A DNA stretch of 64,000 bases from Styela clava (taxonomy: Eukaryota), in contig NC_135259.1 in NCBI RefSeq assembly GCF_964204865.1, forward strand, positions 5,642,001 to 5,706,000, in the 5' to 3' direction. Every line of letters starts with the position of its first letter. Position 1 is the stretch's first letter. Below are positions 3,725 to 42,799 of the stretch, piece after piece. Both the position numbers and the translations under genes were made by a program. The notes beneath the pieces were generated by a model. It was given only the letters and a program-made list of their open reading frames with translations. It was not told the origin of the DNA and did not search any database.

Positions 3725-4076
3725 TAGGATAGGATAGGATAGGATTTACATATTTATCCCGGGGGAGAGGAAAGCCGATAAGACGGCTTATCCATATGGC
3801 GAACCACGGCCTCTCGTCCGGTTACCATTCCAAGTCGGGTATGGGATTAGTTTTTACTGTATTGTTTGTTTTCGGAAGCATGGACTTGGTGGTGGAGGAA
3901 GCCGTAACCGACCAGCGGTTACGTGAACCACCCAACGACGGCGAGGAGTCCAGCAATCCTCTCGCACATAACCATCCCTGCATGGGATTCGAACCTGCGA
4001 ACCCACGCAGAGTAATTAGAGGTGCGGGGGCGAGCGTATTCTTAACGCTTAGCCCGTTGGGCCACACCGCCGCGCC
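3725..4076 (-). mobile_element. Full-length tRNA-derived SINE
   Basis: Head with A box (GTGGCCCAACGGG) and B box (GGTTCGAATCCC), central GGCTTCCTCCACCA segment, (ATCCT)n tail. Near-identical to 13147-13484. Confidence 0.9.
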
Positions 4077-13146: not shown

Positions 13147-13484
13147 GGCGCGGCGGTGTGGCTCAACGGGCTAAGCGTTAGGAATATGCTCGCCACGGCA
13201 CCTCTAATTACTCTGCGTGGGTTCGCAGGTTTGAATCCCATGCAGGGATGGTTATGTGCGAGAGGATTGCTGGACTCCTCGCCGTCGTTGGGTGGTTCAC
13301 GTAACCGCTGGTCGATTACGGCTTCCTCCACCACCAAGTCCATGATTCCGAAAACAAACAATATAACTAATCCCATACCCGACTTGGAATGGTAACCGGA
13401 CGAGAGGCCGTGGATCGCTATATATGTATAAGCCGTCTTATCGGTTTTCTTCTCCCCCGGGATAAATATGTAAATCCTATCCTA
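13147..13484 (+). mobile_element. Full-length tRNA-derived SINE, inserted into an older SINE copy
   Basis: Same family as 3725-4076. It is flanked by SINE mid-part sequence (about 13100-13146) and a second SINE 3' end (13485-13640). Confidence 0.9.
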
Positions 13485-14933
13485 AGAACAAAAACTGGCT
13501 AACCAATCTCATACCTGGCATGGGCTGGTAACCAGACGAGAGGCCGTGGTTTGCCATATGATTAGGCCGCCTTATCGGCTTTCCTCTCCCAAGAGATAAA
13601 TACATAAATCCTATTCTCATCCCCGGGATAAATATGTAAAAACAAGAAATTTTCGAAGGTTAAGGGTTGTCGAAGCTCAACATGTTTTCGCTGTAGTGAA
13701 AACTGTGTTTTATCTAGTAAACTTCGTTGCTGGGGTTTAGCGTTCAGGCATTTTCAATATTCGGTTTGAATCGCTCACTTCAATCTCTTTTATTTTATCG
13801 TCGACCATCTCAGTATGGAAATACATCGTAAATTGATACCTAAATATAATCAAGTATACTCATAATCAGACTAGTGTTTAGCTCACTGTTCACTGATTTG
13901 CCTGTAACCTCTAAACCTGGAAATGTTTTTTTTTAGGTGGACCTGCATTTAGTTACAGATATTCATGGCACAGTAGCTTATTTCAACTCTTATATTACAA
14001 AAAGGGAAATAAATATACAAGGATTAACGTTAAAACATTCCTGCATTTTTTCACTCCTCAGATATGATCTTCAATCGTCGCTGGGTGACATATTCACAAA
14101 ATTTGGTTTGTATCTTCATATTAGCTTTGTAGTATAATTCTATTGTAAAAACATGGCATTTAAACATACCTAATAGCTTAGTTTCTACATATCCCTTCAA
14201 TCTTCATGTATCGAGGATCTGTGTACAGGTATAGTATAGATGGGTGGATGCCATTGTTTACTTAGGATAGGATTTACATATTTATCCAGGGGAGAGGAAA
14301 TAATAAATATATAATAATAATAAATGAATACTTCAGTATTTATTGTAGCAGAGAGCAATTACTATTATCATAATAGGCCGACACCATATCTGCAGTTGGG
14401 ATTAGGTCAGACTAACTTCCTATTCCACTATCTTTGTGCCAGTGGATCTAAATAATGCAAGGATATTGTAGCACGAATAAAGAAGACTATACTCTGATAC
14501 TACAGTTACTATGTACCCCCTCTTGCCCCAATTATATTTTCATAACATTGTTGTATCAAAATTTCTTTTACTAACAGGAAAAACATGTAGGATAAATTTC
14601 TGTGTTCCTAACTTGTATAAATAAAATGAGAGCTTGCTTAATTTTTTTTTTTAAGAATATTTTCAGAATTTTTAAATTTAAACTTGAAATATTTATCAAG
14701 CAGTTTTTCCCTATTTGATTCAATTCCCAATAAAGAAAAGAAGGTACATGTTCATTTTTACTTTTTTTGTCATGAAGAAACTGAAAATAAATTCACCCCG
14801 ATCTATAGTTTATTTGTATTATTTTACAGATTTTGTTTGCCATTGTCGTTCTTGCGTGGAGTTACATTTTATATGCTGGTGTGCTCAATGCTCAAGTTAT
14901 TCTTCAAAATCGATAAATATCTAAGTAAGAAGA

Positions 14934-16393: not shown

Positions 16394-21249
<4,856 letters not shown>

Positions 21250-26057: not shown

Positions 26058-26741
26058 CGGGTATTTACATCTTGATTTGAGCGATGTTGTCAATAGCTGA
26101 CTAAAGCACGCTACGAACCAGTGACAATTGAAATAGGGGAAACAATTGATATCCGCTAAATTCTGAGAGGCAGTCGAAAGAATAGTTTTTGTACGAGGGT
26201 CGAAGTTTCCATTTATTCTAAGAACTTCCAACATTCCATCAAATAGATAAGATAATTTATTTTTAAATTCGACGTGGTACGAAAATGATAGCGGACAAGA
26301 CTAACACACAGAATGAAATTCACAAAAGATGGCTGAACTCCAATGGACGTTTTGCCGACCCTTGATCCACGCTTGAATATTTATCTGAGCGAAAGAAGTG
26401 TCTGAACGTCGGCATAAATTCCAATTGTTACGTTATCGTTAACTTATTGCTGATTTGTAATTGTTACAAAAATGACCAGGAAAATTGATACTAGGGGAAA
26501 CATCTATTGGGTTTTAAACTTGACACATAAAACAAGAGAGCAACGCTCAAATATATATGCGCAATATGCCAGATTAAATATAAGCAAAACTTTTGTAGAC
26601 AAGGTCAACCTTTAATGATATAGAGGACTTGTACGGGTCACGTGACCTTGTTTACTGGACGGCAATAAAACAAAAACGTCCATTTGGCTCCTGTCAGTTG
26701 CAAGTCGGATTATACGTTTCCGTTTTGTTTGGCTGTTGAAA

Positions 26742-27750
26742 ATGGTTATTTCGTATTGTTCCGCTGGCTGTGCGTATGGTATAGACAACGAAACGGATCT
26801 TCAGTTATATTCCACTGTTTTCAAAAGATCCGGAACGTCGCGCAATGTGGATATCATCTATTGGCAAGACTGCTTGGTGTCAAGTCCAGAAGCCATCTCA
26901 CTTGTGTTTCACTGTTTGCCGACAGCTCTTCGTTGATGGTGAGTCATAATGTGCCGTAATCAATTTTTTTAAATATTCATAAGCTCCCTCATTTCGATGG
27001 AAAGCAGATGACAAACTACTGTTATTGGTAGGCCTAGGCGTAGACCTACCTGCAGACTTGACTCGTGTAAGGTATTAATCAATAATTGCCATAAGGTATT
27101 GTTTCCCTAGTTAGCAGGTAATCTATTAGTAAGTGTGAAAAGTTGAATAGATAACTAAAGTTTGAATTCTCCATCTAAGAATACGCTCGCCACCGCATCT
27201 CTGATCCCCCTGGGAGTTTCACAGGTTTCAACCCCATGCGGGGATAGTTATGTGCGAGGGGATTGCAGGGAGGGAGAGATTGGATCTCCTCCCACTGAGG
27301 GTGGTTCACACGACCGCTGGTCAATTACGACATCCCCCACCATCAAGTCCATGCTTCTAAAACAAATAACTGGCTAACTAATCCCGACATAGAATGGTAT
27401 TCGTACGATGTTGCACCTTGCAATCTGTCCCCAACCACAGATAAATTCTATCCTAAAAACTACTCACATTGGTAGGCATAGTTGCGTTTCAAATTGAAAG
27501 AAATCTTCATTAATGGTCAGAAGGTGTTGTCTGATTGTTTTATTAGTTAGCAGGTAATTTATTACTGATCTGATATACAAACTTGGCACTGTCAAATGAT
27601 GATTAGTGTTTAATTTATTTTCAGGAAAAAGGGAAGATAACCCATTATCAGCTGCTTATATGTCCCATCGATATTTGAATTTTCGCCATCTCCAGAGTGG
27701 AAGAGAATAGTTGGTAAAAGGGGAATTTTGAAGAAAGGCAAAAGGCAGGA
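26742..27750 (+). pseudogene. THAP zinc-finger pseudogene (exons about 26742-26938 and 27625 onward); inverted copy of exon 1 at about 29063-29253
   Basis: Combining both arms: MVISYCSAGC...IPKDPERRAMWISSI...TVCGQHFVDG|GTGAGT intron|KREDNPLSAAY/VPSIF (THAP C2CH and AVPTIF box), with frameshifts. Confidence 0.8.
27175..27455 (+). mobile_element. 5'-truncated SINE in left arm
   Basis: GAATACGCTCGCC...AAGTCCATGCTTC...GATAAATTCTATCCTA. Confidence 0.8.
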
Positions 27751-28099
27751 CCATTTCAACAAATTCTGCTAACTTGTATGCGTTGCAATATTACTTTGCA
27801 GTTGTTAGCATAAACATTTAATGTGTCTTTCGACTAGACCTACCACACTTTAAAAGAAGCCGCCTACACCCCTTTTCACTAGAACTATAATACTGTATAA
27901 TATTTGATAGAAATTACCCCCGAGGCATCATATCTTCCATTTGAAAGGGATGTGGAGGCAGATACATTTTTTACTCTAAATTATGAAATGTTACTTCCAG
28001 GTTATCTTATCCTTGCTTATAGATATCTTGAGGTCAGTGACTCCAACTGACCCATGCATTTTAAACAAAATGTTGCGGCTAGCCGGTTACCCATCAGAA

Positions 28100-28350
28100 T
28101 TTTCTTTCAGATCACAAAGTCGCAATATTACGCCTCGCTAAGTTGCATTGACAACTGTATCTCGTTGTAGTATCGGTGTCCAACTTTAGACTGAAACCTT
28201 CACTACCAGGCTCACCGAAACAATTTTTTTTCTTGATAGGGTCGTCTTGAAGTTGCTTTCGTTAAAGCACGATGGACACTTTATCTCCACCAATCCACAG
28301 TAATCACAAGTTACTTTGTCATTAGGATGTATTATCAAGTCTCGCAAGCT
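28100..28350 (-). pseudogene. YqaJ/lambda-exonuclease-like pseudogene remnant
   Basis: LIIHPNDKVTCDYCGLVEIKCP then, after frameshifts, HRYYNEIQLSMQLSEA*YCDFVI*. Confidence 0.8.
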
Positions 28351-28598
28351 GAGGTCTTGTGCCACTGTGGTCTTGTTGCAACTTATACTTTGCCATCCAT
28401 CTATTCCATGGTCGCACCCATATCTGTAAGATAATGGATACAGATAGAGTTTTCATAAAATCTAACGATCAAAGAGTGTGGAATTTATGTCCATATCCCA
28501 CCACAGCCACTAGTCGTAAATGAATTTGATTCCGGGTAGCATATCTTTTTTACCAATGACAATAAAAAGACATTTTTGATCAGTTGTTCAAGCACCAT

Positions 28599-28808
28599 TA
28601 GGATAGGATTTATCTGGGGGGGCGCCAGTTATTTGTTTTCGGAAGCATGGACTTGGATGGTGGGGAATGGTCGTAATCGATCAGCGGTCATGTGAACCTC
28701 GGTGGGAGTAGAGCTGCAATCCTCTCGCACATAACTATCCCCGCATGGGATTGAAACCTGTGAAACTATCAGGGTGATCAGAGATGCGTTGGCGAGCGTA
28801 TTCCTAGA
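28599..28808 (-). mobile_element. 5'-truncated SINE in right arm (same insertion point)
   Basis: Same truncation point and flank as 27175-27455; TAGGATAGGA tail. Confidence 0.8.
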
Positions 28809-29902
28809 TGGCGAATTCAATTGAATTCTGGGTATTTTTTCCAGGCCCCATGGTGTTAAACTTTAGTTATCTATTCAACCTTTCACACTTAATAATAGAT
28901 TACCTGCTAATTAGGAAAACAATACCTTACACAAGTCAAGTCTGCAACTGCAGGTAGGCCCACTAATAACAGTAGTTTGTCATCTGCTTTCCATTGAAAT
29001 GAGGGAGCTTGTGAATATTTGAAGAAATTGATAACGGCACACTATTACCACATTATCACTCACCATCAACGAAGTGCTGTCCGCAAACAGTGAAACACAA
29101 GTGAGATGGCTTCTGGACTTGACACCAACACCAAGCAGTTCTGCCAATAGGCAATAGATGATATCCACATTGCGCGACGTTCCGGATCTTTTGGAATCAG
29201 TGGAATATAACTTGAGATCCATTTACGAATACGGAACAATACGAAATAACCATTTTCAACAGTCAAACAAAACTGTAACGTATAATCCGACTTGTAACTG
29301 ACAGGAGCCAAATGGACGTTTTTGATTTATTGCCGTCCAGTAACAAAGTCACGTGTCCCGTGCAAGTCCTCTATACGTATATCCGGATCAAAAACTGCTT
29401 TTTGCTTAATTGACACAGCGACTCCGTCTACTGCTACATTCATGTTGTAATTTGGGGGGTTCCCACGGTCTTCACGTGTCGCAGTGTTTCTTTTTCTGTG
29501 TTTGGTGTTTGCTTTACTGCTCAAGTTTTGAAATGCGGGCATGGAGACACGAGAAATATGGTGAACGGAATTCGATATACAAGAACGGACTACCGTACAT
29601 CCGTAAATGTTTAAAATAGACACAATGTGAACGTTACATAGGGAAAGGCAAGCAGCATAAAGACGACATGAGATCGGTACATACCGGTACCCGGTACAAG
29701 TGTTGGATCCAGTGAATAAACTTCAAAATGACCAGATTGTGGACCAGATTCATGGTTAAAAAATTCTTGCCAGACTAAAGGAGTATCAGAATTGAGAATA
29801 TCATTTTCAAAATTTTAATTTTAACTCGAGGTCGATGAAAATTTAGAATCAAACAATTGTGGAAAACAAATTTTAGTAATACTGTAATATTGACATGCAG
29901 AC

Positions 29903-30944
29903 GTACGGGGGTCTAGTATAGTTTAGTACCACAAGTACTTCTGTTGTGCGTAGGAATTTTACATATGTTATTCCTAACCCCCACCTGACTATGTCATCCA
30001 AAAACTACGTCACTACGACGTCACAATCACGTCATAGAGCTTGCCCAGTATAGCTACCATCGTCCGGGATGGCATCTGCGCCGACGATACCAAACTCATT
30101 ACGACGCAAGAAATCCAAATTGGGCTAAGTCCATTTTTCTAGTTTTGAGAAAAACCAAAAAACGTTTTTTTTTTGTTTCTTTTTTTTATTTCTTTAATAC
30201 CTTACATCGAGGATGTCTAGTTTTTATGGTCCACCAAAGTTACAATGAAGGCCATATTTTGATGGTATAAAAACATTATTGCTCCGCCCCAATTTTTTTG
30301 GGGGGTTTTTTTTTGGACTTAACCCTTTTTGGCTCTCAATTTTCTGGACCAGAAACAATTTTATTGGACTTAGGGCCCCTTTATTATGTTATTATAGAGG
30401 CTGGTATGGACTTAGCGCTTTGTATTATATTTTTTGAGAGGAGCTATGTCCAAAAAACGGACTTAGCCCCAACTTGCAATGCAGTTATCCAGAGCTAAGT
30501 CCACTATAGTAGACACAGCTCTGTTTAGTTCTCAAATGCCCTAAAAAAAGCAGGGTTATGTCTATAGCTGTCTTGAGATCTAGAGCACCTAGAGATAAGG
30601 CAAATAGACCAAAATTTAGAGCTAAGTCCAGGAAAATCAGCAATTGAAAAATGTCATTTTTTGGAAAAGTGGACTTAGCACTGTTTGGTTTTGAGGTGTC
30701 GATTAACGCCAGCCCTCTCTCTCATGTCGGGATCGTTGCGACGAGAAAACGAGAGAAATAGCTTGATCGATTTCGGTTGATACTTCGTACACTTCGGAGA
30801 TATTTATTACGCCAGTGTGGTGTCGTAGTGACATAATTTTTTGGTGACATAGTCATGTGGGAGTTAGGAATAACATATGCAAAAATTGTTGAGCCAGGCC
30901 AACTAGAAGTGCATGTGGTACTAAACTATACCAAACCCACATAC
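29903..30944. mobile_element. Long-TIR MITE upstream of DDX10, interrupted by a second element
   Basis: About 120-bp imperfect TIRs (GTATAGTTTAGTACCAC...CATATGTTATTCCTAAC.CCCAC.TGACTATGTCA...CACTACGAC). Confidence 0.8.
30102..30701. mobile_element. 600-bp MITE with 4-bp TSD ATTA and repeated GGACTTAG motifs
   Basis: CGAC...GTCG termini, about 39-bp imperfect TIR, ATTA at 30098-30101 and 30702-30705. An empty site is visible in the host copy near 2275-2300. Confidence 0.8.
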
Positions 30945-31297
30945 AGTACCAACTTATACAACCCTACTTTCTGTCAGCCTGTCTTTGATAGACTGTTTTG
31001 AACACTTTTTTAGTTTCTGCAAAAAAAGTTTTCTCTGGTCTTTAATTTTCATCATTAAAGTCTAAAATTCTGACTCCAGGGAATTCAAAATTTTGATTTT
31101 TGATTTTAGGAAGTTTGAAAATTCGCCTTGCTTTGATTCCAAAACAAAATGCCAGAGTCCAACTTCATAGAAGTGCTCTTATTTTATTCTTCATGTTATG
31201 TCGTTGAAAACATAAAACACTTGTTAAAATAGGTATGACATTTAATTTTTCAATTCAACAGCATTGTATAGATATAAAAAAAAATTCTAATCTGAAA

Positions 31298-34200
31298 ATG
31301 AGCAACGACATTGCAAGCTTTGAAAAATGGAAGGAAAAGAAAAAGAAAAACAAAGAAATGGGTGGCAAAAAGAAAAAGATGTTCGTGAGAAAAAGACAAT
31401 GGGAAGTCGAAGTTGAAAAAATTAAAGATTTGGAAAAGTTGTATGAAGAGGTGGGTTGCATCTTTTTACATCTTGCCCATTTCACATTTAGGGATTTGAT
31501 AATCAGTGGTTTGATTTTCATATATTTTATGAGTGTATCTAACTCATTATCTGAACAAAGCCAAGCACCCACTTAGAAATAGAGATTTACAGTGCACTTT
31601 ATCTGCTCAACAATATGGGACTGAAATTCATTTAAAACCTCACTTTCTGTTTAGGTATGAGTTTACCAAAATCTTCAGTAATCTAAGACGCTTTGCATGA
31701 AAGTTCTCTCAAGAATATTATGTTCTAATTTACCTAGGTTCCATTTTTGAGTCACACTGTGAGAAATGACTAATTTTTAAATCCCATTAAATGGACAATA
31801 ATTTAATATTTTATTTGTCAAATTCTGTGAGACCGTATTACCATATTTGTTTTTAAATATTCTCCAGTTTGATGTTACTAAAGCAGAGACCTTTGAAGAA
31901 TTTCCTTTGTCTGACAAAACTAAAAAAGGTTTGGAAAAAGCTGGATATTCTAAACCAACAGCGATTCAACAGGCTTCATTTACACCTGCTATCAAAGGCA
32001 GGGATATACTTGGTGCTGCAAAAACTGGATCAGGGAAAACACTAGCGTTTTTAATTCCGGTAAATATTTTTAAAAGTTGTGTTATTTCTGTAATTTTTCA
32101 CGATGCATATTTTAGTATTTTTGCAAACAAGGCTTATTATTACGATAGTATTATTATCGTAAAAACACATGATCTGACGCTACGTTATGCCACACAGAAA
32201 TCATGTGTCGCTATATATTGGAATATTTCCTAATTACTAAATTTCTAATAAAATTTCAGGTACTTGAATGTTTATTCAGACAACGTTGGTCATCCATTGC
32301 TGGACCTGGTGCTCTTATCATATCACCCACCAGAGAACTTGCGTACCAGACTTTCGAAGTTCTTAAAAAGGTATATTTATTAACTCCTCTCTAAAAAGTC
32401 AATTTTAAAATTGCTATTATAGTTTTATAGATATATGAGTTTTCTTTGAATTTGAAAAAAGTCTGAAGAAAATGTGGAAACAACTTTTTGTTTGTTTCCT
32501 ATATGGCGCTCAATTTAGATGTGTCGCTTCATCCAAGACCATGTATAACAGCCACTCATATCTGAAGATAAGTAAAGGGCTATCAATTTTGGAAGAAGCG
32601 AAAACTTCCCAGTTACACCCTGGGTGAGGTGGTAGACATGGGATTTGAACCAGAGATGTTCAACCTGCGAATCCCGGCACATTCAAGTAACACTTTATTG
32701 GGCAATCACATCAACAATAATAAATTTGGTGGCTTATGATAATGCCTCAACAACTTCAATGACTTGCAATTTGATCATGATCGTTCCAGCAATTACAGGA
32801 TAGTACAAATGGTAGTTTAATGATTACAGAATATCATTTTGTTCAATAGATTGGACAATTCCACGATTTCTCTGCTGGACTTGTGATCGGTGGAAAAGAC
32901 GTTAAATCAGAATCATCTCATATGTCACGAACAAATATATTAATATGTACACCTGGTAGATTATTGCAACATATGGATGAAACTTCCTATTTTGATGCCT
33001 CAAATTTACAGGTTTTAGGTAAAATAATTTATTGTGTGATCATTTCTGATGATATTAATGTTTATAAATGATACATCAATACTTTAATTTTTGTTCGACT
33101 TGACAAAGTCTGATAAGTTATCAATGACACAGGCAGCTCCATCTCCAATCCAACATTATTGAATGTTTAATAAGTGCTGTTTATTTTATAACTTTAACAG
33201 CTAAGCTAGAATTTAAAGTTTTAGATTGTGTATTTCAACATTAAAATATCCATGTTACGATTGGTGTTTCCACTGCTCTGCTGACAAGGTCATTGAAGTG
33301 ATAGAATAACATAATCTCTTTCTACAAAATAACAAGTATTTTAGTGGGCTTTGGTCAGATCATAGTCAATCTTTTTCAAACAATACAAGATATAGCCGTA
33401 TTATTTAAACAGCAATTGTTAACAATGTTATTCTGGTTTTACTTGTCCAATATTTGTCAAGATAGCTCAGTTCTCAAATGTTTTTGACTCTTTTAAAACA
33501 TAACCATTTCATTTCAGTACTTGATGAGGCAGATAGAATACTGGACCTTGGCTTCAAAGCTACACTGAATGCTGTGATTGAAAACCTACCTACAGAGAAA
33601 CAGACTTTGTTATTTTCTGCTACACAGACAAAGTATATAGGCTATTATATATTTGCAAAAACAGATTATGTACTGATTCAAAAACCAAGAACTATGCTTT
33701 GATGACCAATTTCAGTTTTCAGAAATAAAATGAAGACCTTTTTGGTTATGTGTAATTTAAGTCGTTGCCAAATGATTCAAGCCGAAGTCATAGGTTTAAT
33801 GACTGGTATAAAAGAATCATAAATATGATAATGAGAGTGTTCGCAATTAGTTGTCCAAAATGTTGATAATTATTGTTGAGTGAGAGAAAGTATCTTTTTT
33901 TAAATTGGACTTGGTGTGCATTCAATGCAATTTTCATTATTTCTCAGATCAGTAAAAGATTTAGCAAGATTGAGTCTTCGTGATCCAGCTTATGTGTCTG
34001 TTCATGAAAAATCAAGAAGCAGTACCCCTGCTGGTAATTTTGGATTAGTTATATAAAGTTCACTTGCAACTAAACTTATATATGTTATTGAAAAAGTCGG
34101 TTAGGTAATAGGAATTTCCAAAGTCGGGAGGAAAAATTAAAACAGCTCTTGTAATGAATTCAAATATTTAACTTCGTTAGTGATAATATTATTATTCGTT

Positions 34201-41756: not shown

Positions 41757-41873
41757 GTAAACACAAGTCTTCTTTCGATGGTTTTCATATGTTTCTCATA
41801 CCTGTAGCTAGGTGGGAAGTATATATGAAGTGGCCATATATTATCTTTGGGCGGATATCGCGCGCCTCCGGAC

Positions 41874-41972
41874 CTGACCTAGACTGGTGACCGGATGAGA
41901 GGCCGTGGTTCGCCATATGATTAAGCCGTCTTATAGACTTTCCTCTCCCCGGGATAAATATGTGAATCCTGT
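41874..41972 (+). mobile_element. SINE 3' fragment
   Basis: GAGAGGCCGTGGTTCGCCATATGATTAAGCCGTCTTAT...CCCCGGGATAAATATGTGAATCCT. Confidence 0.8.
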
Positions 41973-42799
41973 CCAGACCCGCTGGCGTAGGAGTCGTATT
42001 TTGAACCTTCACGGGGCTGAAACCCAAATCTCCGGAGTCTAATTTCAGACTTTCAACGGTGATAAGAGGAGAGGGAGAGATATTATTTCCACAAAACAAT
42101 GTTTTAAATAAATTAAAAAAGAACCGACAATATTACAGATTTTTTATCAAAATACAGTGCAGTGGATAATTTAAACGTTTAGTTGTGTAGGTCAGTATGC
42201 AAGACATTCGCAGGTCACCAAGGCTCCCGATCCCGACCATTTTGTTCACCGTGATTAGGCTTCAATAAGGTATTCATTAGATTGTGACGGTATAAAATAA
42301 AAATACAGAAAACGAGTCGAACAATTTTATTTCATTTTTTCTATGATTCGACAATATATAATCATGTTTATTGTGGAGTTCATGTGTGAAATTATACTAC
42401 ACTGTGATCTAGTACAATACTGATCACTTCCACAGAAACCTGGCTGGATATAAAAAATGAATAAACAGTATGGCGATAAGAATATCACAGATTCAATCAT
42501 TGAACAAAACTAGAACTTTATTACACCAATAATAATGTAAGTCATATTAATGGTATATATAAACGATTAAACTCCGCTGATATACAATCAGAAGTTGAAA
42601 ATGTGATGCACTACAGGTAAATATTAATACATGTTTTACCCTCGGGATATATATGTAAATCCTATCCTATCAATAATATTATTAATCGATCAGAAGGCAA
42701 TTATTTTGAGTATTGTGAGCTAGAGTTTTTTCATTTTCTTATCTTAGAAAACAATGACGGAGAGGAATTTTTTATTTCGAATGGGACATAACCCCAAAC

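Follow-up and report, generated by a model that had tools for sequence, protein, structure and literature searches.

The window analysed here is a stretch of 64,000 nucleotides of Styela clava DNA (NCBI RefSeq assembly GCF_964204865.1, contig NC_135259.1, positions 5,642,001 to 5,706,000 of the forward strand), in which positions 26622–29372 are occupied by one copy of a dispersed, non-autonomous DNA transposon that derives from an ISL2EU element and carries a transposase-side end at both termini. Each of these ends consists of a terminal inverted repeat (TIR), the first exon of a THAP gene, its intron, and one truncated short interspersed element (SINE), facing inward. The explanation that we favour, with a probability of roughly 0.78, is a two-left-ended ISL2EU-derived family in which the right arm was formed first and the left arm afterwards, the resulting unit having been dispersed at TATA sites. 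An earlier note on this DNA had described a single foldback-like unit; the interval is instead one member of a multi-copy family.

A dispersed unit with two transposase-side ends

Self-BLAST of the window aligns the inverted arms 26619–27374 and 29375–28624 (E=0), and their global alignment contains 631 matches and 53 mismatches in 15 ungapped blocks, with six perfect runs of 26–46 bp each. Both ends read AT followed by AGAGGACTTG, and each arm carries THAP exon 1, the intron, and a SINE 5′-truncated at the same point, as the earlier note had recorded; exon 1 has a GTGAGT donor, and the truncation point is 27176 on the left and 28806 on the right. Its statement that arm similarity stops at the SINE tail holds insofar as the same ATCCT tail closes both arms, at 27454 and 28600; unbroken similarity, however, ends earlier, at 27374/28624, owing to ∼70 bp missing from the interior of the right-arm SINE. 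The centre contains THAP exon 2 (+) and a YqaJ remnant (−), as had been noted, and also a DDE transposase remnant at 27750–28059 (+) that had not been listed. Compared with most copies of the family, the window copy lacks ∼470 bp at 28059/28060, a deletion whose endpoint at 28059 is common to one copy on C14; it also lacks ∼265 bp after THAP exon 2 that older relatives keep.

The arm-centre junction (28480–28720) is matched in all 40 scored places, out of 239 candidates, and the terminal 25-mer has 311 exact occurrences, as against 0 for its reversed control. A clean, full, two-ended copy with unrelated flanks is present in 26 of the 40 fetched stretches; in the remainder an end does not lie within the stretch or the copy is truncated. 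The earlier note had regarded a junction unique in the genome as the outcome that would speak against it. A unique rearrangement, or an independent insertion of the right arm, is ruled out by these junctions and two-ended copies, and it is nearly certain that the element moved as one unit, as had been proposed.

The consensus was built from 27 copies including that of the window, three of 29 end pairs (L096, L114, and L130) having been left out before alignment as miscalled or truncated. Its length is 3341 bp; the arms measure 778 and 811 bp and are set apart by 44 substitutions and 8 gaps. Copies diverge from it by a median of 1.7–2.0% and a minimum of 0.3–0.5%, and the window copy by 2.7% in the left arm, 3.2% in the centre, and 4.8% in the right arm. 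The consensus is itself frameshifted, and the unit was therefore non-coding already at the time of its amplification. One copy interrupts a member of another DDE family, empty copies of which match its flanks at 97–100%, indicating recent movement. Among other derivatives, the centre is inverted relative to the arms in L285, L288, and L344:932-1660, as recombination between arms would give, and L013, L020, and L022 are short forms consisting nearly entirely of arm, near-perfect foldbacks of ∼1.5–1.8 kb.

TA stands ahead of the end at 66 of 76 left ends and 36 of 38 right ends. Of 30 entries tested, 29 of them pairs and one the window, 6 yielded paralogous empty sites, and in these the flanks join without remainder to give TATA or AATA, corresponding to insertion into T/AT/A and compatible with an AT duplication. 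A duplication of TA is ruled out by the empty sites, and one of four bases (TATA) by 5 of 26 copies whose left flank reads AA and whose right flank reads TA. The AT pairs are a probable target-site duplication, albeit one indistinguishable from blunt insertion of an element reading TAGAGG..CCTCTA. Asymmetry between left and right flank bases is not significant (p=0.09). Copies inserted directly at the ends of other copies, including a young copy beside one of the old lineage, are present at L344:318-4898 and L289:3155-3156, where the family ends regenerate the TATA target.

The assignment to ISL2EU depends on domain matches that are, within the window copy, of weak to moderate strength, and that are firmer through relatives. 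THAP is found there at E=0.014, short of the Pfam cut-off; among the relative stretches it comes first of the Pfam hits in 5 of 6, all likewise short of the cut-off, the best having E=9.6e-5 and 23.5 bits against the required 23.9. No direct Pfam match for YqaJ was obtained in the window copy, whereas three Pfam-positive YqaJ proteins align to the element with E values of 1e-13 to 9e-11. The window copy alone also gives no Pfam match for DDE; PF13359 is matched over the cut-off at C9:478743 (relative L245), where the DDE sequence is 82% identical to consensus positions 1334–1911, and relative L313 gives a DDE match at E=0.013. The HTH region is deleted in the young family, and the additional 265 bp of old copies show no clear match to an in-genome transposase profile. 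Stops and frameshifts interrupt both the young consensus and the old majority, such that two intact open reading frames (ORFs) are absent and the ISL2EU gene content of THAP, DDE (DDE_Tnp_4), and YqaJ persists as remnants only. The origin that had been proposed from THAP and YqaJ is thus borne out by remnants of THAP, DDE, and YqaJ with the backing of relatives; of the profile matches expected for it, YqaJ is reached through Pfam-positive relatives and THAP as the best hit, while the window copy itself stays below the Pfam cut-off.

History of the two arms

Old-lineage copies were probed with a 301-bp segment that the young family has lost, and 14 places were found. The right side is kept in 10 of these, and all 10 have an inverted left-type arm with the same truncated SINE (the B arm), a count that overstates independence since several old copies cluster on C6 and C18 and are possible segmental duplicates. 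The left intron site is kept in 8, and none of the 8 contains the SINE (the A arm). No native right end occurs in any of the 14 places. Together with the two-ended family, these relatives support the earlier proposal that the YqaJ-side end was lost and replaced by an inverted left-type end. The left-to-right copying of the SINE that this proposal would imply is most likely incorrect: in older relatives the SINE is in the right arm only, and the left arm is now a mosaic.

Majority sequences of the arms differ at 50 of 563 positions between B and young, 73 of 543 between A and young, and 72 of 554 between A and B. A tree of 32 arm rows resolves three clades, comprising old-left, old-right, and all young arms (supports 100/99, 95/89, and 100/99); it is unrooted and gives no direction by itself, and the order of events therefore rests on structure and distances. 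As far as the SINE tail, the young left arm is of right type; beyond it follows the old left intron, the join running across three A bases common to both, and this structure explains the direct repeats D1 and D5. Both young arms have lost 10 bp near base 35. The tail of the in-element SINE is derived, being without a stretch found in 12 of 12 free-SINE tails, and this state is common to both arms, indicating that one SINE copy was duplicated. Judged from these sequence comparisons, the arm with the SINE most likely originated at the right end, and the left end later received a copy of it.

The proposed sequence of events has three steps. In the first, the YqaJ-side end of an ISL2EU element would have given way to an inverted arm of left type that ends in the SINE, and this form, with left arm A lacking the SINE and right arm B carrying it, would have spread as the old lineage. 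A copy of the B arm would then have reached the left end, either through template switching at the DNA level or through a deletion between neighbouring copies, with the old intron rejoined three bases past the SINE tail and a direct repeat left behind. Internal deletions, drift of the arms to ∼5–6% apart, and recent amplification of the unit would have followed.

The first right arm may have originated by recombination between SINEs, by a SINE bridging a break, or by inverted duplication followed by deletion. More specifically, it could have come from recombination between a SINE inserted in YqaJ and a separate one inserted in a left intron of a neighbour lying in inverted orientation, or from a SINE that bridged a break, a possibility that we place somewhat short of even odds and that concerns the first step only, being compatible with the favoured explanation. 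In old and young copies alike, the SINE marks the exact boundary between left-end homology and YqaJ, its tail facing YqaJ; it is also abundant, with three free copies in the window and another in the YqaJ intron of L281. No relic with just one of the two insertions was found, however, and for the left arm such an origin is disfavoured by the derived SINE 3′ end and tail, which the two arms have in common.

Alternatively, the SINE could have entered the left intron first, the left end then being copied over the right and the old left arms without a SINE arising later by recombination between direct repeats. D1 and D5 flank the left SINE and would be able to recombine, and the unrooted tree leaves room for this order. 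It nevertheless requires a target duplication of ∼170 bp, a crossover within its first ∼20 bp (the old left introns being A-type from the start of the repeat), and later homogenisation of the arms, and the SINE is absent from 8 of 8 old left introns; we consider this order unlikely. It is improbable that the module of arm and SINE was instead copied through RNA, by an enzyme of a long interspersed element (LINE) priming on the SINE tail, with new transposon ends then being made. Both arm junctions do lie at or within 3 bases of the SINE tail, and unspliced arm sequence is present in RNA-type contigs, but the copied arm retains its intron and extreme terminus, including the 10-bp loss of both young arms, and a transcript from an internal promoter would not be expected to cover the terminal stretch.

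Ongoing conversion between the arms of young copies is unsupported, as only 10 of 677 left-arm changes are shared with the right arm of the same copy and mixed patterns resemble subfamily states. End-to-end dimers as a source of hybrids, with an opposed end within 60 bp at 3 of 145 ends, are too few to weigh.

Probable transcription from the arms and features of the window

Transcribed sequence was sought in runs that are only guessed to be RNA-type, none being on record as RNA, and the contigs are unstranded. A joint from 29064, in right-arm exon 1, to 28423, in the YqaJ exon, with GT..AG ends, is present in runs X1 and X2; its depth is 0 in both X6 and X10, the latter a larger run. In all 4 of the runs X1, X3, X5, and X7, which come from three studies, these exon-1 letters are found at 28424. 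The left splice, from exon 1 to exon 2 (loose end at 27624), is present in one run, X7. In fetched DNA the joined form was not found for the right arm (0, as against 62 unspliced contexts) or for the left (0, as against 66), and the DNA check of the joint between exon 1 and YqaJ covered the fetched loci and one run. Of 183 distinct contexts, 151 have the GTGAGT donor of left exon 1. In X1 and X3 the dominant contigs for exon 1 show states absent from the window copy, and expression is therefore to be read at the level of the family. At that level inward transcription from both arms, in line with the two inward-facing promoters suggested previously, is likely and has contig support for the family, not for the window copy.

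Since the transposase promoter region and first exon are kept in both arms, some copies would be likely to make convergent, spliced, non-coding RNAs from the two arms. The left and right spliced RNAs carry exon 1 in the same sense and are thus not complementary in exon 1; double-stranded RNA (dsRNA) would require the transcripts to overlap centrally or one of them to run on into the opposite arm, beyond what unstranded contigs show.

The right splice also bears on whether the parent natively had TIRs of ∼575 bp that included THAP exon 1, the right arm serving to make a THAP-YqaJ fusion. Right exon 1 is indeed spliced to the YqaJ exon, and an intact ISL2EU family of the same genome has TIRs of ∼305 bp. 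The splice is out of frame, however, with a phase 1 donor against a phase 2 acceptor and a stop after six codons, and no THAP domain is found in the three YqaJ relatives. Exon 1 shows no significant synonymous excess between A and B (4 synonymous and 7 non-synonymous differences, p=0.26, with low power), and A and B may be sister families or drifting arms. A native origin of the long arms is rated as improbable.

Splicing of exon 1 to a host exon was considered and ruled out, the loose end being genomic and representing a 38-bp capture in another repeat. That repeat (7 matches; L351, L353, L354:1531-1568) contains 38 bp of the family's THAP exon 1 ending at the splice donor, possibly captured or retrocopied and joined in DNA to other sequence.

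Features of the window copy, in window coordinates
Feature	Position	Strand	Basis
Left AT, probable target-site duplication (target T/AT/A)	26620..26621	.	Ends and empty sites
Left arm module: terminus AGAGGACTTG, THAP exon 1, B-type intron, SINE to tail	26622..27454	+	Self-BLAST, arm comparison
THAP exon 1, left copy, frameshifted, donor GT at 26939	26742..26938	+	Pfam THAP E=0.014
5′-truncated SINE with ATCCT tail, left copy	27176..27454	+	Likeness to free SINE copies
A-type (old left) intron resuming past SINE tail	27455..27624	+	Repeats part of pre-SINE intron: direct repeats D1, D5
THAP exon 2 remnant	27625..27749	+	Translation; spliced loose end at 27624 in run X7
Decayed DDE transposase core	27750..28059	+	Relatives; ∼470 bp deletion at its end in window copy
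YqaJ exonuclease 3′ exon remnant, acceptor AG 28424-28425	28060..28423	-	tblastn with P0002, P0003, P0005; joint at 28423
YqaJ intron and partial upstream exon (KKICYP motif), cut at SINE tail	28424..28599	-	
Same SINE, right copy, internal deletion ∼70 bp, tail joined to YqaJ	28600..28806	-	
Right arm module (inverted left-type end)	28600..29372	-	
THAP exon 1, right copy, donor GT 29063-29062	29064..29253	-	
Right AT, probable target-site duplication	29373..29374	.	

Free copies of the SINE with an (ATCCT)n tail lie at 3735–4076, 13147–13484, and 20102–20311 of the window, the left in-element SINE being 72–74% identical to these copies at 3862, 13179, and 20109, and the 3′ unit of the free SINE also stands alone at 13500–13617 and 41872–41974. 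A free copy has no Rfam match; from its look, the SINE is presumably of tRNA origin. Downstream of the transposon, a second element with inverted ends occupies 29903–30944 (arms 29903–30036 and 30805–30944, 79% alike); it is related to window repeats 2091–2238 and 2669–2794 and is probably an unrelated miniature inverted-repeat transposable element (MITE). Exons of a DEAD-box helicase gene follow at 31208–32230 (+; PF00270, E=2.9e-9), ∼1.8 kb downstream of the transposon.

Parent element, comparable systems, and meaning

Non-autonomous DNA transposons can be moved in trans by a related transposase, and on this general ground the mobiliser of the family was likely an ISL2EU transposase related to it. 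This genome contains intact ISL2EU families that have THAP, HTH_Tnp_4, DDE_Tnp_4, and YqaJ. One that appears intact (L230:8-8380, L226:1256-9501) has an ORF with THAP, HTH, and DDE and a second ORF for YqaJ; its TIRs, of ∼305 bp, begin with AGACC, and one end contains a fragment of a SINE. Searches with the PF09588 and PF13359 profiles, and with old DDE DNA, the segment lost from the young family, and protein P0003 as queries, returned only decayed relatives or distant families, and a degenerate pattern for the expected native YqaJ continuation gave 0 matches; these searches scored top candidates only, and absence of the parent is not established by them. At the protein level a word-index search gave no matches and phmmer gave 5.

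Several points weigh against the favoured explanation. To the clustering of old copies, the unrooted tree, the ambiguity of the AT pairs, the guessed nature of the runs, and the foreign states of the X1 and X3 contigs is added that the searches yielded no mobilising transposase, that no intact parent was found among 85 DDE/YqaJ loci, and that the intact ISL2EU families found in this genome start AGACC or GGAGGG, whereas the window family starts AGAGG.

In the accessible portion of PMC4482050, ISL2EU is a group of PHIS DNA transposons that duplicate AT at the target, have TIRs that usually but not obligatorily start GG, and carry a second ORF whose role is stated as unknown. The window family resembles the group, as presented in the available parts of PMC4482050, PMC4122938, and PMC9179366, in its THAP-DDE and YqaJ remnants, its animal host, and a target that fits AT duplication. 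It differs from that partial account in being non-autonomous, in its arms of 778 and 811 bp compared with reported TIRs of 6–259 bp, in its target (T/AT/A compared with A/AT/T), and in its AG start in place of the usual GG; the per-family TIRs in Table S2 of PMC4482050 may bear on the comparison of length and termini. An AG start also occurs in an intact ISL2EU family of this genome. The arms differ further in including a coding exon and a SINE.

Similar end duplications are already known from other transposons, Galileo and Mu killer being precedents. Galileo 2RT of Drosophila mojavensis is likewise non-autonomous, with TIRs lengthened by an inverted copy of sequence internal to TIR1, a form with 22 copies in subfamily E; conversion and ectopic recombination are proposed and chimeric copies described (PMC3573991, accessible portion). 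It differs in belonging to the P superfamily and in recruiting F1, which is upstream of the coding segment, and the same portion of PMC3573991 reports no SINE and no splicing from two arms. Mu killer of maize, as far as the available text of PMC3440606 goes, is a partial inverted duplication of a transposase gene with two copies of one TIR, proposed as a source of hairpin RNA; it is described as a single locus transcribed by read-through from an adjacent gene, and its silencing effect has been demonstrated, whereas the window family consists of hundreds of mobile copies. Symmetric piggyBac elements also carry two left ends; according to the part available of bioRxiv 10.1101/2022.09.26.509586, these are engineered, the wild-type enzyme needed asymmetric ends, and symmetric ones moved only with an altered enzyme, in contrast to the natural spread seen here. 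No two-left-end ISL2EU family was found in the literature, Repbase and paywalled papers lying outside the search.

A further suggestion, which we regard as unlikely, is that the family plays the part of Mu killer in an animal, as a mobile element that amplifies itself. Hundreds of copies with putative convergent or fold-back RNA from two captured transposase promoters would feed a small-RNA silencing directed at both the cognate ISL2EU transposase and the main SINE of the host, and would have helped to extinguish the parent. Should dsRNA and small RNAs be demonstrated, the family would offer a naturally occurring case in which self-silencing by inverted derivatives could be tested in an animal; without them it would be a well-documented but expected sort of transposon decay. 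Intermediate stages of end replacement are also kept in the genome with the SINE as a marker, and the order of events can therefore be read. The mechanism of ISL2EU transposition is little studied, and the family suggests that two transposase-side ends can serve as substrate for an ISL2EU transposase and that a unit of this kind can be carried by it to hundreds of sites, and thus that the native YqaJ-side end is dispensable in cis.

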